From contig JBKHCS010000006.1 of the NCBI GenBank assembly GCA_046541715.1, positions 1 through 53,123 on the forward strand: 53,123 nucleotides of DNA, written 5' to 3'. This document shows positions 14,086 to 51,789 of the stretch, one piece after another. The position numbers and the translations under genes were made by a program. Positions within the stretch are counted from its first letter, which is position 1, and each line of letters begins with the position of its first letter. Origin of the DNA: Spirochaetaceae bacterium (GTDB taxonomy: Bacteria; Spirochaetota; Spirochaetia; DSM-27196; PWMO01). The notes beneath the pieces were generated by a model. That model ran no database searches. It was not told the DNA's origin and saw nothing but the letters and a program-made list of their open reading frames with translations.

Positions 14086-14095
14086 CGGTCAGAAG

Positions 14096-14167
14096 AGCGG
14101 GAGACGGGATTCGAACCCGCGACATCCACCTTGGCAAGGTGGAGCTCTACCACTGAGCTACTCCCGC
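14096..14167 (-). tRNA. tRNA-Gly(GCC)
   Basis: Cloverleaf GCGGGAG...CTCCCGC, anticodon loop TT-GCC-AA, GTTCGAATC. Confidence 0.96.
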
Positions 14168-14219
14168 AATTCGGCGATCGGCGACAATACCGGCGGTGCC
14201 TTGCGGTCGCCCGGATAGG

Positions 14220-14301
<82 letters not shown>

Positions 14302-14360
14302 ACGGTATACCATCTTACAAAAACGTCGTCAATTACGTTTCTCAGACGGTTACGTGGGAT

Positions 14361-14433
14361 TGAGCCGTAGAGGGATCGAACCTCTGACCCGCAGATTAAG
14401 AGTCTGCTGCTCTACCAGCTGAGCTAACGGCCC
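14361..14433 (-). tRNA. tRNA-Lys(CTT)
   Basis: GGGCCGT acceptor, GCAGA-CT-CTT-AA-TCTGC. Confidence 0.96.
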
Positions 14434-14446
14434 ATTATATGAAATG

Positions 14447-14521
14447 TACGCCCGGCAGGATTCGAACCTGCGACCTGCGGATTCGAAGTCCGACGCTCTA
14501 TCCAAGCTGAGCTACGGGCGC
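14447..14521 (-). tRNA. tRNA-Arg(TCG)
   Basis: GCGCCCG acceptor, CT-TCG-AA loop, GTTCGAATC. Confidence 0.95.
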
Positions 14522-14532
14522 AAAATCCGGCG

Positions 14533-14605
14533 GGTGGATGACGGGACTTGAACCCGCAACAACCAGATCCACAATCTGGTGCTCTACCTTTGAACTACAT
14601 CCACC
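14533..14605 (-). tRNA. tRNA-His(GTG)
   Basis: Encoded G-1, GTGGATG acceptor, TT-GTG-GA loop, C discriminator. Confidence 0.96.
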
Positions 14606-28689: not shown

Positions 28690-30750
28690 CTATTGTCGCT
28701 GAAGTTGCCCCACCCGCTCCAGTGGTTCCGGTCGCGAAATTGCGAAACCCTGGGCGTAGTCGACGTCCATGTCGATAAGCATCCGGCGAATAGTGTCGTT
28801 TCCGACAAACTCGGCGATGGTCTGCATGCCGATTGCGTGGCCGATGCTGTTTACCGCCTGAACCATCGCGTAGTCGATCTTGTCCTGGTCTATATCCCGG
28901 ACGAAGGAGCCGTCGATCTTGAGAAAGTCGACCGGAAGCCGCTTGAGATAGGCGAAGGAGGAGAAGCCGTTCCCGAAGTCGTCGAGAGCAAAGGTAACAC
29001 CGAGCTTTTTCAGCCGGTTCATAAACGCTACGGCCCGGGTTAGGTTTTCGATGGCGGTGGTTTCGGTTACTTCGAGGCAAAAGCAGGCCGGGTCTGCCTG
29101 GGTTTCCTCGAAGAGCTCGACGATATAGTCAAGAAATGAGTCGTCGGCGAGGGATGCTCCCGATAAGTTCACACAGTAGACCCGGGACTCGAGATCCGAT
29201 TCGGCCCGTTGCCGAACATGGTGCATCACGTTCTTGATGACCCAACGGTCGATGTAGGGCATCAGGTTGTAGCGCTCCGCCGCGGGGATAAACTGTCCCG
29301 GGTCGATCATCTCGCCATCTACTTCGATCAGCCGCAGGAGAATCTCGGCCTTCGGGACGAGCTCCGGTCGAAGGGGCTCGATGTGTTGAGAGTAGAGAAC
29401 AAAGCGGTCCTCCTCGAGGGCCTTCGTCAATCGGGAAATCCACTGCATCTCCCCCCGGCGTTTCAGAAAGGTGTAGTCCGCCGTCTCGTAGACCTTTACC
29501 GAGTTTCCGCCTTCCTCCTTGGCGAGAAAGCAGGCGTCGTCCGCCGCGGAGAGGACGGTGTATAGGTCGATATCCTGGCCGCCGATTGGTACCAGGCCGA
29601 TGCTTGCCGTGATGTTAAAGGAGTTCTTCTGCCAGATGAACTTCCGGCGCAGCTTTCCCAAGAGCTCTTGGGAGGTCCGGATGTTGCTCTTCCACTCCGC
29701 GTCGAGGAAGACTAACCCGAACTCGTCTCCACCGAGGCGCCCGAGAATGTAGTTTCCGGTTACCGTCTCGTCGATGGTCTGGGCTACCTGCCGCAAGAGC
29801 TCGTCCCCGGCGCCGTGGCCACAGACTTCGTTCACCACCTTGAACTGGTCGAGATCGACGTACGCAAAAGCGTGGTGGTGGCCGTTGCTCCGAGAATTGT
29901 CGATTAAGTCCCCTATCCGGGCAAAGAGCTCCTGACGGTTAATAAGCCCGGTAAGGGCGTCGTGGCTTGCCTGGTAGACAATCTTGTCCGACATCGATTT
30001 GATGTCCGAAACGTCCCGAAAGGCGATGGCGATTCCTTCCACGTCGCCGGTTTCGCCGTGGATTGCCGAGATCACACCCTCGACGTGTATCTCCGCCCCC
30101 TGCTTGTTCTTTAAGTAGACGTGATCGAAGTATCGGGGAGTCTCCGCTTCGAAGCCGGCAGGTAGGGAAACCTTGAGCTCGGTGTTGTCGTCGTAGAGCT
30201 GGAAGACTTGGCTCAAGGGCAAGCCTTGGGCGGTTTCGCTTCTGAAACCGGTCAAGGTCTCGGCTACGGGGTTTAGCAGCTGTACCTGGAAGTCTTGGTC
30301 CGTCGCGACGAGCCCGTCGGCGACGCTGTGGAGAACCGAAGAGAACCAGCGTTTCTGCCGTAGCAACTCCGCGTGAAGGCGGCTCTTGTAGAGCGCCATG
30401 TCGATGGTGGTGTAGAGCTCCCGCTCCTTGAAGGGCTTCAGGACGTAGCCGAAGGGCTCCGCGTCCTTCGCCCGCTCGATCGTCGTGTCGTCGGCGTAGG
30501 CGGTAAGAAAGACCACCGGGATCGAGAGGGTCTGCTTTATCCGGGTGGCAGCTTCGATCCCGTCGACGGGCCCGGCGAGCATGATGTCCATCAGGATCAA
30601 ATTCGGCCGGTATTCTCCGGCGAGCTCGACGGACTCGTCTGCCGTTGCCGCTATTCCGACAACATTGAAACCGAACTTCTCCAACCGGCGTTGGAGGTCC
30701 AGTGCTATAATGCGCTCATCTTCAACTATGAGAATCCGTTGACTATCCAT
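28690..30750 (-). CDS. REC-PAS-GGDEF-EAL c-di-GMP metabolising response regulator
   Basis: ILIVED...LMDI...KPF; PAS; HDALTGL, RLGGDEF; EILLR, DDFGNG, KIDGSF. Confidence 0.93.
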   Translation of the reverse strand: MDSQRILIVEDERIIALDLQRRLEKFGFNVVGIAATADESVELAGEYRPNLILMDIMLAGPVDGIEAATRIKQTLSIPVVFLTAYADDTTIERAKDAEPFGYVLKPFKERELYTTIDMALYKSRLHAELLRQKRWFSSVLHSVADGLVATDQDFQVQLLNPVAETLTGFRSETAQGLPLSQVFQLYDDNTELKVSLPAGFEAETPRYFDHVYLKNKQGAEIHVEGVISAIHGETGDVEGIAIAFRDVSDIKSMSDKIVYQASHDALTGLINRQELFARIGDLIDNSRSNGHHHAFAYVDLDQFKVVNEVCGHGAGDELLRQVAQTIDETVTGNYILGRLGGDEFGLVFLDAEWKSNIRTSQELLGKLRRKFIWQKNSFNITASIGLVPIGGQDIDLYTVLSAADDACFLAKEEGGNSVKVYETADYTFLKRRGEMQWISRLTKALEEDRFVLYSQHIEPLRPELVPKAEILLRLIEVDGEMIDPGQFIPAAERYNLMPYIDRWVIKNVMHHVRQRAESDLESRVYCVNLSGASLADDSFLDYIVELFEETQADPACFCLEVTETTAIENLTRAVAFMNRLKKLGVTFALDDFGNGFSSFAYLKRLPVDFLKIDGSFVRDIDQDKIDYAMVQAVNSIGHAIGMQTIAEFVGNDTIRRMLIDMDVDYAQGFAISRPEPLERVGQLQRQ

Positions 30751-32424: not shown

Positions 32425-33018
32425 CTACTGCACCTGCAACATGCCGGAGAAGCCCATAAAGGCCATCGCCATGAAGCCGATGGTAATCATTGTGATACCC
32501 GCTCCCTGGAGCCCTGCGGGAATCGGTGCCTTTTCGGTCTTCTTCCGAATCGCCGAAAGCAACATGATCGCGAGCCACCATCCGAGTCCCGAGCCGAATC
32601 CGAAAATGACCGCCTGCCAGAAGGTATAGCTCCGAATCTCCATAAAGAGGGAGACACCGAGGATGGCGCAGTTAACGGTAATCAAAGGGAGGAAGATTCC
32701 CAGCGAGAGGTAGAGGGGCTGGGATACCCGGTCGATGATCATTTCGAGCATCTGAACGACCGCCGCGATAACGATAATGAAGACGATATACCGGAGGTAG
32801 ACCAGACCGTAGGGAATCAGGACGAACTCCAGGACCGCCCAGTTGACCGCCGTCGTAATGGTAAGCACCACGACAACCGCCAGGCCGAGGCCGTTTGAGG
32901 ACTTCATGTCCTTGGAGATAGAGATAAAGGAACACATCCCCAAAAAGTTCGCCAGCAGAATGTTGCTGGTAAAAATCGAGGCGAAGAAGAGGGAGAAGGG
33001 GTTCAGTACCGAGTTCAT
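32425..33018 (-). CDS. nqrE: NqrE/RnfA-type membrane subunit
   Basis: NFLGMC, GIFLPLITVNCAILG, AFMGFSG. True start MNSVL at 33018. Confidence 0.85.
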   Translation of the reverse strand: MNSVLNPFSLFFASIFTSNILLANFLGMCSFISISKDMKSSNGLGLAVVVVLTITTAVNWAVLEFVLIPYGLVYLRYIVFIIVIAAVVQMLEMIIDRVSQPLYLSLGIFLPLITVNCAILGVSLFMEIRSYTFWQAVIFGFGSGLGWWLAIMLLSAIRKKTEKAPIPAGLQGAGITMITIGFMAMAFMGFSGMLQVQ

Positions 33019-33641
33019 GCTGCCAGCTCTCCTTGTTTCTGAAGAATGTTCTTGCCGATCCAGATGATGATACCTAAGAGGAAGAAGGCGCTCGGGGGCA
33101 TGACCATGATAATCCAGGGGACGAAGCTCTCGGGGAGGACCTGGTAACCAAAGAGGGAGCCGAATCCGAGGAGCTCGCGAACGAAGGCGATAACCATCAG
33201 GACTCCCATGTAGCCCATTCCGGAAGTCGCTCCGTCGAAGAAGGAGATAACCGGTCCGTTGCTCTGGGCAAATGCCTCGGCTCGTCCCATGATAATGCAG
33301 TTGGTTATGATCAGCCCGACGTAGGGGCCCAAGTTCCGGCTTATCTCCGGGAGATACGCCTTCAGCACCAGGTCCACGATGATGACGTAGAAGGCGATGA
33401 TCAGGGTCTGGACGATCATCCGGACCTTTCGGGGGATGAGCGATTTGAATATCGACACCGTAAGGCTCGAGAAGGCCGTTACGAAGGTAACGCCGATCGT
33501 CATGATCAAGGTATTGGTAAGCAGGTTGGTAACCGCCAGGGCGGAACAGATGCCGAGTACCTGCATAAAGATCGGGTTGTTGGTCCAGAGATTTCCTTTC
33601 AGGATTTCCCCGGTGCTTTTTGCCGTCGCCGTGTCCGCCAT
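33015..33641 (-). CDS. nqrD: NqrD/RnfE-type membrane subunit
   Basis: QVLGICSALAVT, YVGLIITNCIIMGRAE, RELLG, PPSAFF. Confidence 0.88.
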   Translation of the reverse strand: MADTATAKSTGEILKGNLWTNNPIFMQVLGICSALAVTNLLTNTLIMTIGVTFVTAFSSLTVSIFKSLIPRKVRMIVQTLIIAFYVIIVDLVLKAYLPEISRNLGPYVGLIITNCIIMGRAEAFAQSNGPVISFFDGATSGMGYMGVLMVIAFVRELLGFGSLFGYQVLPESFVPWIIMVMPPSAFFLLGIIIWIGKNILQKQGELAA

Positions 33642-34240
33642 TATGCACCTCCTAGGGCGTTTCGGAGCGCCTCGAGCTCTTCGTTTAGAATTCGCTCCAT
33701 CGATTCGCTGGTCCGGGTTGCGCCGGTTACACCGTCGATCTCGCCGTTCGAGTAGTCGGTGTCGCCGTCTCCCTCGGTAACCGCGATCCCACCGTCTCGA
33801 AGCTCTTCCCCGGCCAACTGCTCTTTGAACCAGGGCTCGTCGATACGCCCCCCGAGACCCGGGGTCTCGTTGTGGCTGATAATCTCCAGTCCAACGGTTT
33901 GACTGACATCCTCATCGACTCCGAGGACGCCGTTGATGCTGCCCCAGAGACCGGAGCCGACGAACTCCTTCGCGTAGACGCGGCGGCCGTCTACGGTAGT
34001 GGTAAAGAGCGAGATACCGTCTCGGTCGACTTCCTCGACGTCTTGGAACTTCGACTCGGCGTCTTGGTCGCTTTCGAAGGGTACGCTCATGGCGGAGAGG
34101 ATAGCCTTCTGTCGAGCCACCGTCTCGTTAAACTCCACCATAGGACGGGTTGCTTCGTTCGTCAGGGCCAAGAGAAAGACAAATGCGAAACAGACGATAA
34201 AGGTAAAGATGATGGTGTACCCCATACTCTGCTTGTTCAC
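33641..34240 (-). CDS. nqrC: NqrC/RnfG-type FMN-binding subunit
   Basis: N-terminal TM, GLWG, ETPGLG, flavinylation motif DGVTGATRTS. GTG start 34240 overlaps the upstream stop. Confidence 0.85.
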   Translation of the reverse strand: MNKQSMGYTIIFTFIVCFAFVFLLALTNEATRPMVEFNETVARQKAILSAMSVPFESDQDAESKFQDVEEVDRDGISLFTTTVDGRRVYAKEFVGSGLWGSINGVLGVDEDVSQTVGLEIISHNETPGLGGRIDEPWFKEQLAGEELRDGGIAVTEGDGDTDYSNGEIDGVTGATRTSESMERILNEELEALRNALGGA

Positions 34241-35187
34241 GCAGTGACCTCCTTCGGAGCCGTTTCCGGAGCGGCCTTCTTTTTCTTCTTCGGTTTCGGC
34301 ATAAGCTCGTCGATCAGCGAGGCAAAGACGTTGCCCATCAATACGCCGAAGCTCGTGCCCTCGGGAAAGCCCGAGAACGTTCGGACCAGCATCGAGACGG
34401 TGCCGATGATCGCCCCATAAATCCACTGTGAGCCGGGCTTGTTTGGTGCCGAAACCGGATCGGTGGACATAAAAACCGCGACATAGAGGATACTCCCGGA
34501 CATCATCGCTAAGTGCGGCGCGATATCCGTCGCGAGTCCCGTGTAGTATAAGATGGTGATCAGAATGCCCGAGGAAAGCACCGTCGATACCGTCAGTCGC
34601 CACTGGGCGGTCTTGGTCGCGATCAAATAGATCGACGCGAGGACAATCAGAATCGTAGAGCTCTCGCCGATGGAACCCGCCCGAATACCGAGGAGTAGAT
34701 TCTGCCACGTCGGGTCGGCCACGTCGGCGCTCCGAAACGCGGCCAGCGGTGTCGCGGCGGTCAGGGTGTCGACCCCGACCTGCCCGGCTGTTCCAAAGGC
34801 TCCGGGAACCATCCAGGAGACCGCCAAGACCGTCGGAAAGGTTATGTAGATAAACAGACGTCCCGTAATCGCCGGGTTGAAGACGTTCCGTCCGAACCCG
34901 CCGTAGACCTCCTTGCCCACAAATACCGCAAAGAGAATGCCCACACCGGCGATCCACAACGGGGTCGCAGGGGGCAGCGACAAGGCGTAGAGCGCGGAGG
35001 TAACCAGCACCGCCTCGCTCACCTTCTTGTTTCGCCGCTTCTCCATAACGTATTCGGCGAGAATGCCGAGGGCGAAGACGGTAGCAGTCAGCGTGACAAC
35101 GCGCCATCCATACAAGTAGATGGAAAACAGAAAGATTGGGACGAGGGAGTACAGGACCCGCCTCATTATTAGCTGCTTTTGAAACAC
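34237..35187 (-). CDS. nqrB: NqrB/RnfD-type membrane subunit (short form)
   Basis: KEVYGGFGRNVFNPA, TAATP FMN site, GSIGE, FMSTDPVSAP, FPEG; 316 aa. Confidence 0.82.
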   Translation of the reverse strand: MFQKQLIMRRVLYSLVPIFLFSIYLYGWRVVTLTATVFALGILAEYVMEKRRNKKVSEAVLVTSALYALSLPPATPLWIAGVGILFAVFVGKEVYGGFGRNVFNPAITGRLFIYITFPTVLAVSWMVPGAFGTAGQVGVDTLTAATPLAAFRSADVADPTWQNLLLGIRAGSIGESSTILIVLASIYLIATKTAQWRLTVSTVLSSGILITILYYTGLATDIAPHLAMMSGSILYVAVFMSTDPVSAPNKPGSQWIYGAIIGTVSMLVRTFSGFPEGTSFGVLMGNVFASLIDELMPKPKKKKKAAPETAPKEVTA

Positions 35188-43724: not shown

Positions 43725-45632
43725 TCAGCTCTCGGCTGCCTCGAGAAGCAGACCCCGGTGCCACTCCATCAGCTTGCGGTGGGCTTCCCGGTCGTCTCCC
43801 TCCAGGTCGACCATCAGGCGCATCACGGGCTCGGTCTTAGAACCCCGAAACCAGAGAAAGCCCCGCGGTGTCGCGTGCGAGTCCTCGAGTTGCAGCTTGA
43901 GCCCCCCGGTAGCCTCCGGGCTCCGGTTGCCGCGCCCCGGGCGTGCCTCGGTTCCCTCGTAGTTGATCCAGCGAAAGCGGCTTATTCCGAGGGGGGCGAG
44001 AATCGACTCCGCCACCTCTTCCCACCTCTCCTCGGCGAAAGCCTCGTACCGATCCTTTAGTCGAGGGTGATCCACCTTAGAAAGCCGAAGGATTGCCTCC
44101 GGATCCCCGGTTTGGGTAGTAAGGAAGGGAGGAAGCTGCGCGTAGAGGCGGCTCAGGGGATCTGCCTTTGAAGCGCCCCCGGCCCCTCGGGCGGCCCCCG
44201 GGCCGGAGAGATTCGGCAGCCGCAGTAGTTTGATCAGCGCGCCGAGGGTCAAGATGGGGTCTCGAACTCCCGACGGGTGGATAATCACCCCGCCGTTGGA
44301 GCCCTCGCCCATCACCCTTACCACGAACCCTCTCCGGCGAAGCTCCGCCCCGAGGGAGACAACGTTCGCCTCGCCGACCTCGCTCCGGTAAACTGCCGCC
44401 CCAAGTGATTCGGCGACCCGGTCCAACCGAAGAGAGGTTGGGCCGTTCGCGACGATGGCAAGGTCGGCGTTCCCTCGGCCCCGGGCGGCAGCGTAGCCGA
44501 GCTCGGCGAGGGCGGCGAGGGCGAGAAGGCTCTGGGGGTGGACCGCCTCCCCCCGGCGCAATTCCGAGTTGTAGACGACAATGTTGCCCCGGTCGCCGTC
44601 GTTATCCGGAACATAACCGAGGTAGAGGGGGGCCTCCGAGTCCTCGTCTTTGCCGGAAGCGGCTCCTCCCTGGGCGGCGAGGCGCTCTACCGCGGTGATG
44701 CAGTCGGTTAGGCCCGGGCCCTCGGGAAGAATCTGATGGGCGATCTGCCCCGGGGTATCCCCCAAGGCCGTAACCTCGACCCCGAGGCGTCGAAAGAACG
44801 CGACGTCGGGTCCCACCGCCCTCGCGCTCCCGTTAAAGTCGACTACCAGGCTGATAGGTTGCCGAACCTTTTCGGCGGCCACGACGTCGGCGAGTTCCGC
44901 GGCTGCGCCGAGTTCCGGGGTATCGAAGACGGTCCGGAGGAGGAAGTCCCGGTAGGCGTTTCTCGACGCGAGAAGCTCCGCCCCGCTCTCGGAGAAGACC
45001 CCGGGGAGCTCCCCCGGCGGGGCCGCCGTCGGTGCGGTGTTCGCCGGAGTCGAAGCAGCTTCGAGGGATTCCAAACGATGCCTCAAGAGCTCCGCGAAAC
45101 GCCCGAAGGCGTCGGCGTCGAGAACACCGCCGGTCGAACCACCGATCTTGTAGCCGTTATGGCCCACCGGATTGTGGCTCGCCGTGACGTAGAGGAATCC
45201 CGCCGCCGCCGATAGCCCCCGGCTGTAAGCCATTATCTGAGGCGATGGGCAGATGTCGAGGTACCGGACGGCGATACCGGCTCCCGTGGTAGCTTCGCCG
45301 GGAGCATTCAACGACGCCAGGGCGCCGGCGACCACTCCCCGGGCGAGGGCGTCACCCGTCGGCCTGCTGTCCCGTCCGACGACGATCGTGGCCGTCGGCT
45401 CCCTTCCGGTCCGCAGGTATTCGGCCCCGGCATGCCCGACGAGAAAGGCGATTGCCACGTCTACCGGGGAAACCGTCTCGCCGGGATCTTCTTCCCCTCC
45501 CGGAGCCATGACCGCCCGGATTCCACTGGAAGAGACGATGTATTCCCCGAAACGCTCGGCGACCGTCTGGTGCGAAACGACGCCGGGGTGATCTACCGGA
45601 GGGGATTCTATCAGCCAACTTGGAATCTTCAT
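43725..45632 (-). CDS. Alpha-D-phosphohexomutase (phosphoglucomutase/phosphomannomutase-like)
   Basis: SSSGIR, GRDSRPTG, TASHNP, DNDGDR, VGEANV, GEGSNGG, RGSKTEP. Start uncertain. Confidence 0.85.
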   Translation of the reverse strand: MKIPSWLIESPPVDHPGVVSHQTVAERFGEYIVSSSGIRAVMAPGGEEDPGETVSPVDVAIAFLVGHAGAEYLRTGREPTATIVVGRDSRPTGDALARGVVAGALASLNAPGEATTGAGIAVRYLDICPSPQIMAYSRGLSAAAGFLYVTASHNPVGHNGYKIGGSTGGVLDADAFGRFAELLRHRLESLEAASTPANTAPTAAPPGELPGVFSESGAELLASRNAYRDFLLRTVFDTPELGAAAELADVVAAEKVRQPISLVVDFNGSARAVGPDVAFFRRLGVEVTALGDTPGQIAHQILPEGPGLTDCITAVERLAAQGGAASGKDEDSEAPLYLGYVPDNDGDRGNIVVYNSELRRGEAVHPQSLLALAALAELGYAAARGRGNADLAIVANGPTSLRLDRVAESLGAAVYRSEVGEANVVSLGAELRRRGFVVRVMGEGSNGGVIIHPSGVRDPILTLGALIKLLRLPNLSGPGAARGAGGASKADPLSRLYAQLPPFLTTQTGDPEAILRLSKVDHPRLKDRYEAFAEERWEEVAESILAPLGISRFRWINYEGTEARPGRGNRSPEATGGLKLQLEDSHATPRGFLWFRGSKTEPVMRLMVDLEGDDREAHRKLMEWHRGLLLEAAES

Positions 45633-45660
45633 CACGACTACCCTGTCGCCCAACCTACGC

Positions 45661-45684
45661 TCTGTCAACACGCTTGTGGATACC
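45661..45684. repeat. 24-bp palindrome family, copy 4
   Basis: tctgtcaacacgcttgtggatacc. Confidence 0.65.
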
Positions 45685-45692
45685 ACCACCTG

Positions 45693-45721
45693 TTGAAGAA
45701 TCCTGCAATTCTCTCTATAAG
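45693..45721 (+). promoter_or_regulatory. sigma70 promoter of the RR-HK-K+ channel operon
   Basis: TTGAAG-17-TATAAG, followed by GGGGAG RBS. Confidence 0.6.
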
Positions 45722-45741
45722 TTTGAAAACGGGGAGTGGCA

Positions 45742-47001
45742 ATGAAAAAGATCCTTGTAATTGATGAGTCGACTCTCGTCCGGAACTACCTCGTCAAGAA
45801 ACTCGAAGAGTACGGATTCGAGGTGGCGGTTGCGGTAAACGGGCTCGACGGGGCTTCGAAACTGCGGTCCGAGACGCCGGACCTCGTTATCATGGACTAC
45901 TTCTTGTCTCGGACCAGCTCCATAGAGCTTCTCGAGAAGAAGAAAGCCGATCCCAACGTCGCGCACATACCCGTCATTATGGCGAGCACCAAGATCGACC
46001 GGCAGAAGCTGGTTCAGGTCTCCAAGTACAACGTCAAGAAGTTCTTTACCAAGCCCATTCGAATCGACTCGCTCCTCAAGACAGTCTCGGAGCTTCTCGG
46101 CGTAGAGGTAACCCTCGACGACTCACCCTGTATTATCGAGGCTCACTTCAACGACGAGATCCTCTTTATCGAGGTCGCGGAGGGGCTCAACAAGGAGAAG
46201 ATCGAGCTGCTCCGGTACAAGATCGAGGAGCTCCTAGACCTCTATCAGGTTCGGGTGCCCAAGGTGCTCTTGATGATGGTCGGCGTCGATATTACCGCGA
46301 ACGATTCCCTCAAGCTGGCCACCCTCCTGAACACGGTTATCGAATACAGCCGTGCGAAGCCCCGGGACATCAAGATTCTTACCAATAACGACTTCGTTAC
46401 CCGCTATGTAGGGGGAAACGAGGATTACAAGGACATCGAAGTAACCAACGCCCTGGACAAGGCCATTACCTCGCTTCTCGGGGGCAAGGCCGGCGATGTG
46501 ATGGACCAGCGTCGAGGCGTCGTCCAGGACCAGTTTCTCCAGGCCTCCTCCCCCCGGAAGGAAGGGAGCGAGAGCTTCCAGATGAAGTTCGAAGGCGAGC
46601 GCCTCGAGCATCCGGATCTGGCTGAGGTTTCCGAAGGCCGGCGCATTATCGTTGTCGACGACGATATGGTAATCCGGGAGCTTATCAAGGCGGCCTTCTC
46701 CGACACCAAGTTCGAGATCGAAACCTACGAAGACGGGAGAACCTTCGTCGAGAACGCCGACGTGAAGAACGCCGATCTGGTTTTTCTCGATCTCATGATG
46801 CCGGAAATGAACGGATTCGAAGTCCTAAAGGTGATGAAGGAACGCCAGGTAAAGGTGCCGATCATCGTTCTTTCGGCCCTCTCGAAGAGGGAGTCGGTTG
46901 TCGAAGCGCTAAAGTTCGGCGTTAAGAGTTATGTAATTAAGCCTCTGAAACCGGAATGGATAAGAAAGAAGGCGACGGAAGTTCTCGCGCTGAGCTTCTA
47001 A
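45742..47001 (+). CDS. Response regulator with two receiver domains and no DNA-binding domain
   Basis: N-terminal REC (ILVIDE, VIMDY, TKP), central unknown region, C-terminal REC (VVDDD, FLDLMMP, IKP). Confidence 0.9.
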   Translation: MKKILVIDESTLVRNYLVKKLEEYGFEVAVAVNGLDGASKLRSETPDLVIMDYFLSRTSSIELLEKKKADPNVAHIPVIMASTKIDRQKLVQVSKYNVKKFFTKPIRIDSLLKTVSELLGVEVTLDDSPCIIEAHFNDEILFIEVAEGLNKEKIELLRYKIEELLDLYQVRVPKVLLMMVGVDITANDSLKLATLLNTVIEYSRAKPRDIKILTNNDFVTRYVGGNEDYKDIEVTNALDKAITSLLGGKAGDVMDQRRGVVQDQFLQASSPRKEGSESFQMKFEGERLEHPDLAEVSEGRRIIVVDDDMVIRELIKAAFSDTKFEIETYEDGRTFVENADVKNADLVFLDLMMPEMNGFEVLKVMKERQVKVPIIVLSALSKRESVVEALKFGVKSYVIKPLKPEWIRKKATEVLALSF

Positions 47002-47021
47002 AGCATCCCGTGCTCAAGACG

Positions 47022-49385
47022 ATGAACGCGCTTCCCGTCGGGGTCCTGGCCCTCGACGAAGAGGCCTTTATCGTCGACGGCAACGACCGTGCTTTCTCCC
47101 TCCTGGTGCCGTGGTCCGGTATGGAAGCGCCCCGAAGCCTCGAGGACGCCGTTCTTCCGGAGGACCGTATACAAATAACCGGAGCGTTCCGGGAGCTCAG
47201 AAACGGTAGCACGGACCGTGCGATGGTCGACGTTCGTACCCTGGTCCAGGGAGACGGCGAAACCTGGGCGCGGATTCGTATTGCCCGTTCACGGGAAGAG
47301 AACGGCGATCACGCCACCTTTGTGGCGACCCTCGAAGACGTATCGGTCCAGAAGCAGGGAGAGACCCGCCTCAAGGCCGCGAAGAACGCCGCCGAGCGGG
47401 CTACCCAGACCAAGAGCGAGTTTCTCGCGAACATGAGCCACGAAATCCGTACGCCCCTCCACACTATCCTCGGAATGACCGAGTTGATGTTGGAGACCAA
47501 TCTGGACCAGGAACAGAGTGAATACGCCACCCAGGTCCGGTTTTCCGCGGAGGTGCTCCTCGGGCTTATTAACGATATTCTCGACTTCTCCAAAATTGAG
47601 GCTGGGAAGCTCACCCTGGAATACATCGATTTCGACCTTCGGCAGACGATGGAAGAAGCCGTCGACATGCTTAGCCTCGAGGCTCACAAGAAGAGCCTCG
47701 ACGTCGTCCTCGATCTCTCTCCGACCCTGCCGGATCTGGTAGTCGGGGACCCGATTCGGATTCGGCAAGTCGTGGTAAACCTCTTCAGCAACGCGGTCAA
47801 GTTTACTTCTTCGGGTCAGATAATGATTCGGGCGCGCCCCCTGGAGGTTAGCCCCCAGGCGGCGACCTTGCGAATCGAGGTTTCCGACACGGGGATCGGT
47901 ATCCCGATGGGCAAGCTCAACCAGCTCTTCCGGGCCTTTACCCAGGTCGACTCTTCGACCACCCGGAAATTCGGCGGGACGGGTCTCGGACTCTCGATCT
48001 CCCGGAACCTCGTCCGAATGATGGGAGGTATTATCGGCGTCGCGAGTCAGGAGGGCCGCGGATCGAGTTTTTGGTTTACCGTTCCCGTCGACGTCGTCAA
48101 TTGGAAACGGATCGACCGCAGGGAGGGGGTCCTCTCGGGCCGACGGATTCTGATAATCGACGACAACGAAGCGAGCCGCCGGGCGCTGGTCTCCTACGTC
48201 GCCGCCAGCGGGGCCGGGTGCGGAGAGGCCGCCGACGGCCGCCGGGCCCTCGAAATGCTCCGGGGGAAGGACGGCGTCTACGACGTGGCCCTCGTCGACC
48301 TCGAAATGCCCGGGATGGACGGGTGGCAACTCGCCAGCGAGATAAACGCAGACAAGACAATCAACTCGACACGCCTCGTGCTGATGAGCCCCCGGGGAAG
48401 CACGACCGGGGAGCCGAAGATGAAGCTTCTCGGTTGGTTCGACGCCTACATTAACAAGCCGATCCGCTACGAGGAGTTGCTGAGCAACCTCGAGACTGTT
48501 CTATCCACCGACTTCGAGTTGGCTGCGGCGGAGGACAAGAATGCCGCTGTCGCTCGGGCGGAGTCTTCCGGGGTAGGAACCGCCCCCGCGGCGGCCCGTA
48601 TTCTCGTCGCGGAGGACCATGTCGTCAATCAACAGCTCTTTCGAACCATCCTCGAAAAGCAGGGCCACACGGTGACCCTTGCCGATAACGGCCGCAAGGC
48701 GATCGAGGCTCTCGAGAGCCGGCCGGTTGATCTGCTCTTTATGGATGTTCAGATGCCGGAGATGAACGGCTACGATGCGACCCGAGAGATTCGGCGGTTG
48801 GGGTACTCGATTCCCATCGTAGCCGTCACCGCGAACGCGCTAAAGGGAGAGCGGGAGAAGTGCCTCGAGGCCGGAATGGACGACTTTTTGACCAAACCCT
48901 TTAAGAGCGCCGATATCACGCCGGTCCTCCGGCGATGGTTGTCACCCGGGGAAGAAACCGCGCCGGAAGCCTTGGAAGAAGTCGAGGAGGTGGCGGAGGT
49001 CGAGGAGATCGCACCGGTCGAGGATGCTTCGGAGGAGCCGATTCTCGATTTCGAGCAGGCACTGGAAGCTTTTATGGGGCAGCGGGAGATCGTCGAAAAG
49101 GTCCTGGCGGACTTCAACACCAAGGTTGCCCAGCAGATCGAGCTTATCCGAAAGAACGTGCCCTCGGGAGACATCGAGCGGGCCCGGACCGAGGCCCACG
49201 GCATAAAGGGGGGCTCCTGGAACTTGGCGGCTTACCGCCTCGGGAACGCCGCCGCGGAGCTCGAAGACATCCTCTCTCGCCGGGCTGTCGACGAGGCGCC
49301 GGAGAGCATCGACCGGGTCGAGGCGGCTTACAAGGAGCTTCAGAAACACCTCGGCGAGATCGGAATCAAAGAGGCGGCTACCTGA
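47022..49385 (+). CDS. Cytoplasmic hybrid histidine kinase (PAS-HisKA-HATPase-REC-REC-HPt)
   Basis: FLANMSHEIRTP, NAVKFT, DTGIG, GGTGLGL, two REC domains, AHGIKGGS HPt. Start between 46956 and 47022. Confidence 0.93.
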   Translation: MNALPVGVLALDEEAFIVDGNDRAFSLLVPWSGMEAPRSLEDAVLPEDRIQITGAFRELRNGSTDRAMVDVRTLVQGDGETWARIRIARSREENGDHATFVATLEDVSVQKQGETRLKAAKNAAERATQTKSEFLANMSHEIRTPLHTILGMTELMLETNLDQEQSEYATQVRFSAEVLLGLINDILDFSKIEAGKLTLEYIDFDLRQTMEEAVDMLSLEAHKKSLDVVLDLSPTLPDLVVGDPIRIRQVVVNLFSNAVKFTSSGQIMIRARPLEVSPQAATLRIEVSDTGIGIPMGKLNQLFRAFTQVDSSTTRKFGGTGLGLSISRNLVRMMGGIIGVASQEGRGSSFWFTVPVDVVNWKRIDRREGVLSGRRILIIDDNEASRRALVSYVAASGAGCGEAADGRRALEMLRGKDGVYDVALVDLEMPGMDGWQLASEINADKTINSTRLVLMSPRGSTTGEPKMKLLGWFDAYINKPIRYEELLSNLETVLSTDFELAAAEDKNAAVARAESSGVGTAPAAARILVAEDHVVNQQLFRTILEKQGHTVTLADNGRKAIEALESRPVDLLFMDVQMPEMNGYDATREIRRLGYSIPIVAVTANALKGEREKCLEAGMDDFLTKPFKSADITPVLRRWLSPGEETAPEALEEVEEVAEVEEIAPVEDASEEPILDFEQALEAFMGQREIVEKVLADFNTKVAQQIELIRKNVPSGDIERARTEAHGIKGGSWNLAAYRLGNAAAELEDILSRRAVDEAPESIDRVEAAYKELQKHLGEIGIKEAAT

Positions 49386-49386
49386 G

Positions 49387-50580
49387 ATGGCGTCGACGCA
49401 CCAGGTGGTTTCCACCCGGCGGGGTCCCCTCCACCGCTTTCGGAACTGGTACCGCCGGTCGGATTATGCCGGGCCGACGCTCTTTATCCTGGTGTTCTTT
49501 GTGCTTTCCGGGGCGTCGGTTATCTGGTTCGAATTCGGCAGGAACGAGCAGTTCGCTGACGTCCTCGACGGCTTGTGGTGGGCCGTCATCACCTTTAGTA
49601 CGACCGGTTATGGGGACAAAGTCCCGGTTACCCTCGGCGGCCGTATTATAGCCATCGTTACCATCTTTGTCGGTATCGGCGCGATGAGCCTCCTTTCCGG
49701 TGGTCTCGCGTCTTGGCTCGTTGCCCGGAACACGAAAGCGCGGAGAGGGCTTATGGAATACAAGAGATTAAAGGGGCATCTGGTTGTCTGCGGCTGGAAA
49801 CCGGACATGAAAGATACCCTCCTGGACATCCTCCGGGCCGGCGGCTCCCTATCCTCGGAAGACATCGTCCTTATTTCCAACGTGGACCCGGAGCGGGTGG
49901 AGGAGCTCAAAGAGACGGAGGAACTCCGGGGAATAAAATTTGTCCGGGGGGACTACTTCTCCGAGCTGACCCTCAGGAGGGCCAACCTGGAGCAGGCCAA
50001 GAAGCTCCTGATACTCGCCGACGCGCTGGAGAGCAACGTTTCGAGCGAGGTCGATTCCAAGACCGTCCTTACGGTTCTTACGGCAAAGTCGCTTGCCAAG
50101 AACGTCTACGTGACCGCCGAGGTCCTCGACCGGAAGTTCGAGAGCTATCTCCGGCAGGCGGACTGCGATGAGGTTCTCTTTAGTCGGGACTTCTCGCGGC
50201 AGATTCTCGCGAGCACCTCGGCGACCAACGGCATGAGCCACATTATCTACGAGCTCTTGACGAACGAGCGAAGCGGGTCCCGGCTTCGAACCCATGAGAT
50301 TCCCCCTCGGTATCAGAACAAGCCCTACGGCGAGTACCGGTCGACCTACCGCGACGGTTCCGCCCGGTTGCTTCTCGGACTCTTGGAAAATACCGGTTCG
50401 CCCGGGAGAATGAAGATGGAAGCCCTCCGGGAAGCGCAGAAGACCTCGGATGTATCTCAGTTGATTCAGAACCTCCAGGAGGTCAAAGGGCTCGAAGTCA
50501 ACCGGCCGGTTCTGCTCCCTGGTGATGACTACATCATTCAGCGCCACGCTCTGGCGATTGTCCTGGAGCGGGCGTCATGA
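49387..50580 (+). CDS. 2-TM potassium channel with RCK (TrkA-N) gating domain
   Basis: Selectivity filter TTGYGD between two TM helices; HLVVCGW RCK. Confidence 0.92.
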   Translation: MASTHQVVSTRRGPLHRFRNWYRRSDYAGPTLFILVFFVLSGASVIWFEFGRNEQFADVLDGLWWAVITFSTTGYGDKVPVTLGGRIIAIVTIFVGIGAMSLLSGGLASWLVARNTKARRGLMEYKRLKGHLVVCGWKPDMKDTLLDILRAGGSLSSEDIVLISNVDPERVEELKETEELRGIKFVRGDYFSELTLRRANLEQAKKLLILADALESNVSSEVDSKTVLTVLTAKSLAKNVYVTAEVLDRKFESYLRQADCDEVLFSRDFSRQILASTSATNGMSHIIYELLTNERSGSRLRTHEIPPRYQNKPYGEYRSTYRDGSARLLLGLLENTGSPGRMKMEALREAQKTSDVSQLIQNLQEVKGLEVNRPVLLPGDDYIIQRHALAIVLERAS

Positions 50581-51068
50581 GCTCCGAAGCACGCGACCGG
50601 CTCAGGCAGATCTCGCTCTTCGACGAAATCCGGGACCACGAGGAGAGTATGGGTCACCTCGAGGCGATTACCCAGCTCGTTCAGGTTCCTGCCGGTACAA
50701 CCGTCATCAAGGAAGGGGAAGTCGGGAGCGAGATGTACGTGGTGTTTCGGGGACAGGTCGAAATAAAGAAGCAGACCCGGGCCGGGGACGACTACACGGT
50801 GGTAAAGCTCGATGCCTCTCAGAATGTCTTCTTCGGAGAGCTCGCCCTCGTCGACGACGACAAGCGCTCGGCGACGGTCTTGGCGACCGAAGACTCTGAG
50901 TTCCTGGTAATTACCAAGAAGGACTTTGCCCGCCTCGGAGAGACCCACCCGGAGATAGCGCTTCCCATTACCCGGGCGATCGCCCGCATGCTTGCCGGAC
51001 GCCTGAGAAAGACCACCGTCGACATGCTCACCATCTTCGACGCCTTGGTCAGCGAGATACAGGAGTAG
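50577..51068 (+). CDS. Stand-alone cyclic-nucleotide-binding protein
   Basis: EGE..SEMYVV, FFGELAL....RSATV phosphate-binding cassette; no HTH; ATGA overlap with the channel gene. Confidence 0.9.
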   Translation: MSSEARDRLRQISLFDEIRDHEESMGHLEAITQLVQVPAGTTVIKEGEVGSEMYVVFRGQVEIKKQTRAGDDYTVVKLDASQNVFFGELALVDDDKRSATVLATEDSEFLVITKKDFARLGETHPEIALPITRAIARMLAGRLRKTTVDMLTIFDALVSEIQE

Positions 51069-51789
51069 CCAGCCGGGCGTAGATATCCCCGGAGCGGCTC
51101 CCGGGGCTCAGATTTCGTAGAAGGCCGACAATCGATTCGGCGGCAACCCATTGAGGCAACACGAATCGGTGCCGTTCACCAACGCAGTAGTTAAAACGGT
51201 AGCTCCCGAGGCGCTCCAACCGGTCGACGCATGCGAGGGCCCTTTCAGTCTGGGTCGGCAAGTATTCGAAGCTCACCGCCGGTATAGGCTCCGAAAGGCC
51301 GGCGAGAACCAGCTGTTCGGCCCCTTCCACGTCTATCTTGACGAAGGCCGGGAGACCGAATTGAGCGATGAGCCGATCGAGGGTCGTAACCGGAACCGTG
51401 GTTCGCCGCTCCCATCGCACGCCCCGGCTCATGCCCGAAGACTCCAGGTCCGCGATCCAGGATTCCGTGGTTGTCGTCATAGTCGGATGGGTCGAAGAAA
51501 CGTAGAGGTCGACGATCCCAGGGGAATCTCCCACCGCCGCCGGTACGATCTCCATGTTATGCGATCCCCGGTAGAGACGCCGGAGAAACCGGAGACAATT
51601 CTCCTGGGGCTCGAGGGCGACCACTGTGCCCCCGAGGGCTATCCAGGCTCGGCTTCGGTTTCCGACGTGGGCACCGACGTCGAACATAAGCTCCCCGGCC
51701 TCCCGAAACGGCCGGTAAATGGCCTTTAGCCGCTGGTGGCGTAGGGGAACGGCGTAGTAGATGAACAGGGATCGAAGAAGCCCCAGCAT
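51049..51789 (-). CDS. FkbM family methyltransferase
   Basis: FDVGAHVG, LEP, TLD, KIDVEGAE. Confidence 0.9.
   Translation of the reverse strand: MLGLLRSLFIYYAVPLRHQRLKAIYRPFREAGELMFDVGAHVGNRSRAWIALGGTVVALEPQENCLRFLRRLYRGSHNMEIVPAAVGDSPGIVDLYVSSTHPTMTTTTESWIADLESSGMSRGVRWERRTTVPVTTLDRLIAQFGLPAFVKIDVEGAEQLVLAGLSEPIPAVSFEYLPTQTERALACVDRLERLGSYRFNYCVGERHRFVLPQWVAAESIVGLLRNLSPGSRSGDIYARLATPVSR

Follow-up and report, generated by a model that had tools for sequence, protein, structure and literature searches.

A candidate two-subunit, cyclic-nucleotide-regulated RCK potassium channel next to a phosphorelay in a spirochaete gene cluster

Ligand-gated K+ channels are classic textbook examples and, to our knowledge, every cyclic-nucleotide-gated channel described so far carries its sensor within the channel polypeptide. 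In MloK1, SthK and the CNG/HCN channels, a cyclic-nucleotide-binding domain (CNBD) is fused via a C-linker to a channel with six transmembrane (6TM) segments. The Ca2+-gated K+ channel MthK of Methanothermobacter has a pore of two transmembrane (2TM) segments and one RCK domain; translation from an internal start codon also yields soluble RCK, which completes an octameric gating ring. In Trk/Ktr and other potassium systems, detachable RCK/KTN subunits bind ATP/ADP, NAD(H) or cyclic di-AMP. Here we analyse a locus, at positions 45693-51068 of a stretch of 53,123 nucleotides from a Spirochaetaceae bacterium (GCA_046541715.1, contig JBKHCS010000006.1, positions 1-53,123 of the forward strand), whose parts recall each of these systems; the whole stretch is called the window in what follows. 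The locus consists of four open reading frames (ORFs), all on the + strand: RR2, a protein with two receiver (REC) domains; HHK, a hybrid kinase; KCH, a K+ channel with an RCK domain; and CNB, a stand-alone protein with a domain that binds cyclic nucleoside monophosphates (cNMPs) in its relatives.

The reading that we adopt, with somewhat more confidence than doubt, has two parts: KCH and CNB would form a two-subunit, cNMP-regulated RCK channel, and RR2 and HHK an independent phosphorelay that shares its transcript in the order to which this bacterium belongs. As in MloK1, SthK and CNG/HCN, a K+ pore would presumably be under the control of a canonical CNBD, but here this domain is a separate polypeptide, the pore is of the 2TM type, and there is an RCK domain. 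As in Trk/Ktr, a membrane K+ pore is accompanied by a separate soluble nucleotide-binding subunit encoded by an adjacent gene; there, the soluble subunit is of the RCK/KTN type, whereas here the channel itself bears the RCK domain and its soluble companion has the CNB fold. A literature search, with most subscription journals outside its coverage, did not turn up any account of an RCK channel whose CNB partner is a free protein.

The features of the pair are given below, where conservation refers to an alignment of 37 KCH sequences and to another of their 37 partner CNB sequences.

49387..50580, + strand: KCH, a 2TM K+ channel of the MthK type, with filter TTGYGD and one C-terminal RCK domain (Pfam, hydropathy, alignment).
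50383..50508, + strand: strongly conserved segment of KCH, residues 333-374, an apparent insert in the RCK C-lobe (KCH alignment).
50577..51068, + strand: CNB, a stand-alone protein of 163 amino acids that matches PF00027 only (Pfam, CNB alignment).
50832..50876, + strand: phosphate-binding cassette of CNB, FGELAL..DDDKRSATV (CNB alignment).
51003..51056, + strand: conserved C-terminal helix of CNB, clade-dependent (alignments, covariation).

The Pfam domains of all four proteins score above the curated cut-offs. For KCH, these are Ion_trans_2 (58.8 bits for a cut-off of 22.5), Slo-like_RCK (51.1 for 24) and TrkA_N (42.5 for 23.8). Its filter residues G74, Y75, G76 and D77 are invariant, and its hydrophobic segments are two rather than six, with about 26 residues before the first. 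The best solved relative by sequence is MthK (E = 1.5e-15, residues 46-302 of KCH), which shares with KCH the 2TM pore, a filter of the TVGYG type, the single RCK domain and the lack of a GxGxxG dinucleotide motif (the sequence is CGW). The residues D184, E210 and E212, which we take to be Ca2+ sites of MthK, align with D189 and E245 of KCH, both at least 90% conserved, and with L247, so that two of the three are identical.

KCH departs from MthK in having a dedicated partner gene, in the poor conservation of its internal methionine, and in the C-lobe. The methionine, M123, precedes the RCK domain: it is frequent in the order of this bacterium, and replaced elsewhere in the phylum. As for the C-lobe, residues 333-374 look, by eye, like an insert of about 40 residues. 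They hold the most conserved stretch of the channel outside the filter (L333, N335, G337, K343, E349-T353, D355, L359, N362, L363, K367, N372 and P374), in which E349, A350, Q351, K352, T353 and D355 are at least 90% conserved, and they match no Pfam family. We propose this segment, which would be helical, as a candidate docking element for CNB.

The partner protein scores 66.2 bits against PF00027, for a cut-off of 27.5. The residues expected of an intact phosphate-binding cassette are all in place, with G87, R97 and A99 invariant and E88 and S98 at least 90% conserved, which argues for real binding of a cyclic nucleotide. Nine class III cyclase genes of the genome exceed the Pfam cut-off, and we infer that the ligand is cAMP or cGMP. 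CNB resembles the CNB domains of PKG, PKA-R and Epac, plus those of SthK (E = 5.7e-9) and MloK1 (E = 4.6e-8). Crp/Fnr factors share its N-terminal cNMP-binding domain, but CNB is without their helix-turn-helix, and reaches 44 bits against the CRP model, whose cut-off is 266. In the databases, the protein is named either generically or as a Crp/Fnr regulator; the second name is a mis-annotation, since 163 amino acids without a helix-turn-helix domain do not make such a regulator. Its relatives form 349 clusters at E <= 1e-20, and the best 120 of these 349 are 159-179 amino acids long. Conservation is also unusually high in the C-terminal helix (R144, D149, F154, A156, L157 and E160), which may be the effector surface. 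In a distant spirochaete, a class III cyclase of 1072 amino acids with AAA and TPR domains (L047:8686-11904) lies convergent to the CNB gene, immediately after it; it may be a local source of ligand.

These data bear on two ways in which CNB could be built into the channel. In the first, it would be a structural subunit, ligand-free or with a ligand other than a cNMP, which replaces, for example, the soluble RCK half of MthK. This would accord with the single RCK domain of each KCH subunit and with the absence of a conserved M123 outside the order, and CNB-fold domains of other families do bind other ligands; however, the cassette residues G87, E88, R97, S98 and A99 would then hardly be expected to be invariant or nearly so, nor the genome to have so many cyclase genes, and we hold this explanation to be very improbable. 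In the second, CNB would be an obligatory gating subunit: four (or eight) CNB and four RCK would form a hetero-oligomeric ring via the C-lobe insert, with CNB where MthK has its soluble RCK copies, and the channel would be gated by cAMP or cGMP. We consider this stronger form of the two-subunit channel doubtful.

The case for a two-subunit channel comes mainly from the company that the two genes keep. The phylum was sampled by 301 genomes, which were searched with CNB and with KCH. At KCH places (E <= 1e-60), CNB lies directly downstream on the same strand in at least 83 of 90, and several of the places without a CNB match sit at contig ends. Conversely, 78 of the 81 strong CNB matches (E <= 1e-19) adjoin KCH. 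These pair counts are lower bounds, because only the best 150 of 544 CNB matches are counted. Within the order, full-length orthologues of KCH (E <= 1e-130) are found in 18 of 40 relatives; in the set formed by these 18 loci and that of a distant homologue (genome G036), where the neighbours were located with tblastn, CNB is directly downstream of KCH in 19 loci out of 19.

Outside the order, we examined 20 loci from 20 genomes of the phylum. In 19 of them, KCH is followed by a protein of 161-182 amino acids with cNMP_binding as its only Pfam domain, and the flanking genes are unrelated from locus to locus: FGGY kinase, Lgt, gyrase A, ribonucleotide reductase, ThiC and others. The 20th locus (L037, genome G120), whose channel gene is intact, might pass for a genuine CNB-less channel, but this is ruled out by a truncated CNB remnant directly downstream, which covers profile positions 5-59 and lies 50 nucleotides past the KCH match (C1:141725-141889). 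A short ORF with a TMEM175-like fragment is found on the opposite strand near this remnant. All 37 aligned pairs are separate ORFs; with starts chosen heuristically, the stop codon of KCH overlaps the start codon of CNB in 22 of them, and the gap is 0-30 nucleotides in 11 more. Chemotaxis genes stand beside the pair in two of the 20 loci outside the order: CheR/CheB (L040:3504-5103) and REC/CheX (L041:2073-2993).

Beyond the phylum, with one genome per species, 80 loci were examined among the matches listed, and at least 14 have CNB directly downstream of a KCH relative. Two of these 14 are metagenome-assembled genomes (MAGs) of Spirochaetales; the pair is also present in Ca. Thermokryptus, Calditrichaceae, three Marinimicrobia, a Deltaproteobacteria MAG, Desulfarculia, Desulfovibrionaceae, a Desulfobacterales MAG (46% identity), Cloacimonadota and MED-G177, that is, in at least six lineages outside the phylum. 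The extent of the channel match separates the loci: CNB is present in 10 of the 11 in which the match reaches residue 380 or beyond, and the 66 loci without CNB within 3 kb, mostly from Actinomycetota, Bacillota and archaea, have matches that end near residue 290. The partner gene thus tracks the channel region that follows the RCK N-lobe.

Another possibility is that CNB is a general soluble receptor or buffer of cNMPs with some other target, and that it adjoins the channel because of co-regulation only. Genomes of the phylum have 2-6 matches to CNB, and thus several other CNB-domain proteins; the names given to CNB in databases are merely generic; and no KCH-CNB fusion was found among longer proteins, although this is weak evidence, and the KCH query covered lengths of 696-2000 amino acids and a fusion of about 560 would fall outside. 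Yet the adjacency outlives a full turnover of the remaining neighbours, in several phyla; members of the strong CNB family are seldom found elsewhere than next to KCH; a stop codon that overlaps the next start codon is typical of subunits produced in a fixed ratio; and, in the loci examined beyond the phylum, the partner is confined to channels in which the C-lobe insert region is present. We thus regard a different target as unlikely. That CNB is a trans-acting subunit of the RCK channel was part of the original prediction for this locus, and comparative genomics now lends it good support, through the adjacency (20 of 20 loci outside the order, including the remnant), its recurrence in other phyla and the tight coupling of the genes; the binding itself is what we infer from them.

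Some candidate fusions were rejected. The 719-amino-acid channel P0001 owes its length to a low-complexity N-terminal extension, and has no CNB domain. An ORF of 1254 amino acids around KCH in L035 (1296-5060), which could have been a kinase-channel fusion, contains only channel domains, at its C-terminus. The CNB query, run against longer proteins, retrieved only multi-CNB or kinase proteins of eukaryotic appearance, and no channel fusion. The N-terminal extensions of L035 and P0001 are long and rich in Lys, Glu and Asp, and P0001 is also without part of the selectivity filter.

A comparison of the two proteins across clades gives a lead on where they might touch. The sequences fall into clade A, the spirochaete type, with 36 sequences, and clade B, with 10 sequences from G036 and other phyla, at about 30% identity to clade A. 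We call clade-switch positions those that are conserved inside each clade and different between clades. In KCH these are K138, I148, Y254, N335, K343, T353, L363, V366 and P374, six of the nine being in the C-lobe insert; in CNB they are T67, Y73, T152, F154 and E160, in the beta4-beta5 loop and the C-terminal helix. The clade-specific covariation is thus concentrated in KCH 333-374 and in CNB 67-73 and 152-160, and the raw sequences agree; it may trace a co-adapting interface. A complex prediction with two KCH fragments (residues 118-397) and CNB, based on the 37-row alignments, gave scores of 0.06 and 0.11 for a mark of 0.32, and is not evidence either way.

The mechanism that we propose for the pair would run as follows. 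KCH and CNB would be made in step through their overlapping stop and start codons, and CNB would bind cAMP or cGMP produced by the class III cyclases of the genome. The C-terminal helix and beta4-beta5 loop of CNB would then dock, in a ligand-dependent manner, on the C-lobe insert of RCK, and the docked protein would bias the RCK assembly in favour of opening or closing the pore; K+ flux and membrane potential would thereby track cNMP levels. In parallel, HHK would sense a signal in the cytoplasm through its PAS domain and pass phosphate from His to Asp to HPt, and on to the two receivers of RR2; the output of RR2 and HHK would be the STAS-fold domain described below, probably of the partner-switching type, and not the channel.

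The features of the phosphorelay are:

45742..47001, + strand: RR2, a soluble protein with REC (residues 1-119), a predicted STAS-fold domain (131-246), a disordered linker and REC (301-414) (Pfam Response_reg twice, AlphaFold 2 (AF2), Foldseek).
46132..46479, + strand: the middle domain of RR2, predicted to be STAS/SpoIIAA-like (domain model, Foldseek).
46956 (or 47022)..49385, + strand: HHK, a soluble protein with PAS, HisKA, HATPase_c, REC, REC and HPt (Pfam).

HHK combines HisKA, HATPase_c, receivers and HPt, and has in RR2 a cognate receiver protein, which together make up a hybrid-kinase phosphorelay. In a hydropathy scan, KCH shows two TM segments and the other three proteins show none; the kinase is soluble, as originally predicted. 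In both receivers of RR2, the acidic-pocket, Asp, Ser/Thr and Lys positions are conserved, in an alignment read by eye. In the AF2 model of full-length RR2, the middle domain is folded, as are the two receivers, and residues 248-291 form a disordered linker. Modelled alone, from an alignment of 31 sequences, the middle domain reaches a pLDDT of 93.6. Its best Foldseek match is 1tid_B (E = 2.9e-4, TM scores 0.61/0.65); the top 10 are SpoIIAA, RsbV, RsbS and other anti-sigma antagonists (E from 2.9e-4 to 8.6e-4, TM scores 0.44-0.69), and STAS domains of SLC26 transporters come next. In the 31 sequences, helix 2 opens with a conserved D-S-x-K-L, presumably at the place where SpoIIAA has its phosphoserine. 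The models thus make of RR2 a REC-STAS-REC protein which, by virtue of the STAS fold, would have a protein-protein output of its own, and the natural reading of RR2 and HHK is that of a phosphorelay feeding a STAS-mediated protein-protein switch.

A comparable system is HptB-HsbR-HsbA of Pseudomonas, where a receiver with control over a STAS anti-sigma antagonist takes its input from hybrid kinases and an HPt step (PMC6482189). RR2-HHK resembles this system in its logic, with HPt, receivers and STAS, and differs from it in that STAS is fused between two receivers in one protein. Moreover, neither a PP2C nor a kinase domain other than that of HHK is found within the operon; the genome has 3 SpoIIE-type PP2C phosphatase genes.

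Is this phosphorelay tied to the channel? The original prediction was that it is: a phospho-REC protein, RR2 or the receivers of HHK, and CNB would both dock on the RCK ring, in one pathway of four proteins whose output is gating. The co-linear operon invites such a reading, and so does the absence of any DNA-binding Pfam domain in RR2, HHK, KCH or CNB, a point on which the prediction was right. The distribution of the genes tells otherwise. Of the 41 genomes sampled from the order, 40 contain a single strong match to RR2 (E <= 1e-108), the exception being an 80%-complete genome, and the gene is kept, in single copy, in 21 of the 22 relatives without a KCH orthologue. We examined 18 of those 21 RR2 loci (L052-L069): all 18 keep a phosphoglucomutase-like gene, RR2 and HHK, and unrelated genes then follow HHK. 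The kinase is also next to RR2 in 14 full-length loci with the channel.

One of the channel-less loci retains a trace of the pair: in genome G010, an ORF of 88 amino acids that matches KCH residues 16-99 lies between HHK and a gene of the FkbM family (L064:6846-7112), and is, judging from this match, a deletion scar of KCH-CNB. The patchy presence of KCH-CNB within genera, at one same site, indicates repeated loss while RR2-HHK is conserved. G036 has both systems far apart, with RR2-HHK at 1.12 Mb and its distant, clade-B KCH-CNB at 1.57 Mb. Directly upstream of KCH in the 19 loci of the order, we find HHK in 16, RR2 without HHK in one (G022), and neither in G036; in the remaining locus, the contig ends inside KCH. 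No orthologue of RR2 or HHK is found near KCH-CNB in any of the 20 loci outside the order.

Neighbourhood conservation, proposed with the prediction as a check, thus gives a divided answer: KCH stays with CNB, and their association with RR2-HHK is a juxtaposition that, in the genomes compared, is specific to this order. These phyletic patterns, together with the STAS-fold output domain that the models give to RR2, run counter to channel gating as the output of the phosphorelay, and give no support to the docking of phospho-REC on the RCK ring; we hold the integrated pathway of four proteins to be quite improbable. Our data thus favour a channel pair and a phosphorelay that are independent, and probably co-transcribed within the order.

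Several points weigh against this reading, in addition to the missing fusion. The contact between CNB and KCH is deduced from sequence comparison, and the clade covariation could be plain divergence instead of co-adaptation at an interface. The STAS assignment of RR2 comes from the fold: in the middle domain, Pfam STAS gives no match at E <= 10, and only DUF1779 appears, at E = 0.13; a profile search of the PDB gave one match, at E = 0.46, and a protein atlas search none. Finally, by ORF coordinates, the gap between HHK and KCH is at most 4 nucleotides in 12 of 15 loci of the order; this tight junction and the position of RR2 in G022, directly upstream of KCH, make a regulatory link possible in this clade.

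The local organization of the genes agrees with the four tightly packed genes first described, whose domains and junctions are borne out by the ORFs, by Pfam and by a reading of the sequence. RR2 and HHK overlap by 46 nucleotides or are 20 nucleotides apart, depending on the start chosen for HHK (46956 or 47022); the HHK/KCH junction reads TGAgATG, a gap of 1 nucleotide; and the stop of KCH and the start of CNB overlap in ATGA. The elements that flank the four genes are:

45693..45721, + strand: promoter-like hexamers 5' of RR2, TTGAAG (45693-45698) and TATAAG (45716-45721), 17 nucleotides apart (read from the sequence).
45731-45736, + strand: putative ribosome-binding site GGGGAG before RR2 (read from the sequence).
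43725..45689, - strand: a phosphoglucomutase/phosphomannomutase-like gene, divergent, a conserved neighbour of RR2 outside the system (Pfam, synteny).
51049..51789, - strand: an FkbM-family methyltransferase gene, convergent, which marks the 3' boundary (Pfam, NCBIfam).

A consensus promoter scan lists no + strand site within 45400-51400; the hexamers above are left out because the second one has a G, not a T, as its last letter. Inside the locus, there is no + strand promoter or terminator call, except for a weak terminator-like site at 47469-47483. It is thus plausible that one promoter stands upstream of all four genes, and RR2-HHK-KCH-CNB is likely a single transcript. The sequencing runs that contain this DNA are metagenomes of microbial mats, with no RNA run among those listed. 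The divergent phosphoglucomutase-like gene is upstream of RR2 in the relatives as well, sometimes with one gene between, and the FkbM gene directly abuts HHK in three relatives that are without KCH-CNB (L054, L066 and L069).

No motility or chemotaxis gene flanks the operon within the window, the remainder of which is housekeeping. We note, at 14095-14604 on the minus strand, five tRNA genes (Gly-GCC, Leu-TAG, Lys-CTT, Arg-TCG and His-GTG) upstream of trigger factor, and no clpP-sized ORF listed between tig and clpX. A c-di-GMP signalling protein of 686 amino acids, with an N-terminal receiver-like region, GGDEF and EAL, is encoded at 28690-30750. Only the C-terminal halves of two long ORFs at 32425-35107 resemble Rnf/Nqr subunits (A/E and G/C); these may be over-extended ORFs or fused genes.

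The negative outcome for the integrated pathway matters in itself: the comparative data do not show a phosphorelay gating a channel, and they leave RR2 as a conserved REC-STAS-REC regulator of the order, whose partner is yet to be found. If the two-subunit channel is real, it would represent a new design of cyclic-nucleotide-gated channel, in which a separate small cNMP sensor acts on RCK, in several bacterial phyla. It would join RCK and CNB, regulatory modules that have so far been studied apart, and offer an easy system for allostery, both parts being small and bacterial, and the sensor soluble. If, moreover, CNB is an obligatory gating subunit, such a channel would set the membrane potential in spirochaetes and in several other phyla, and in the order of this bacterium a cNMP-controlled K+ flux and a PAS/STAS phosphorelay response would be switched on together. 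The chemotaxis of spirochaetes is said to have a membrane-potential component, going by the titles of papers of 1981 and 1983 on Spirochaeta aurantia, and the channel would be a candidate for it; this link of the pair to taxis is speculative. More generally, KCH and CNB would be a concrete candidate for the coupling of second messengers to membrane potential in spirochaetes.

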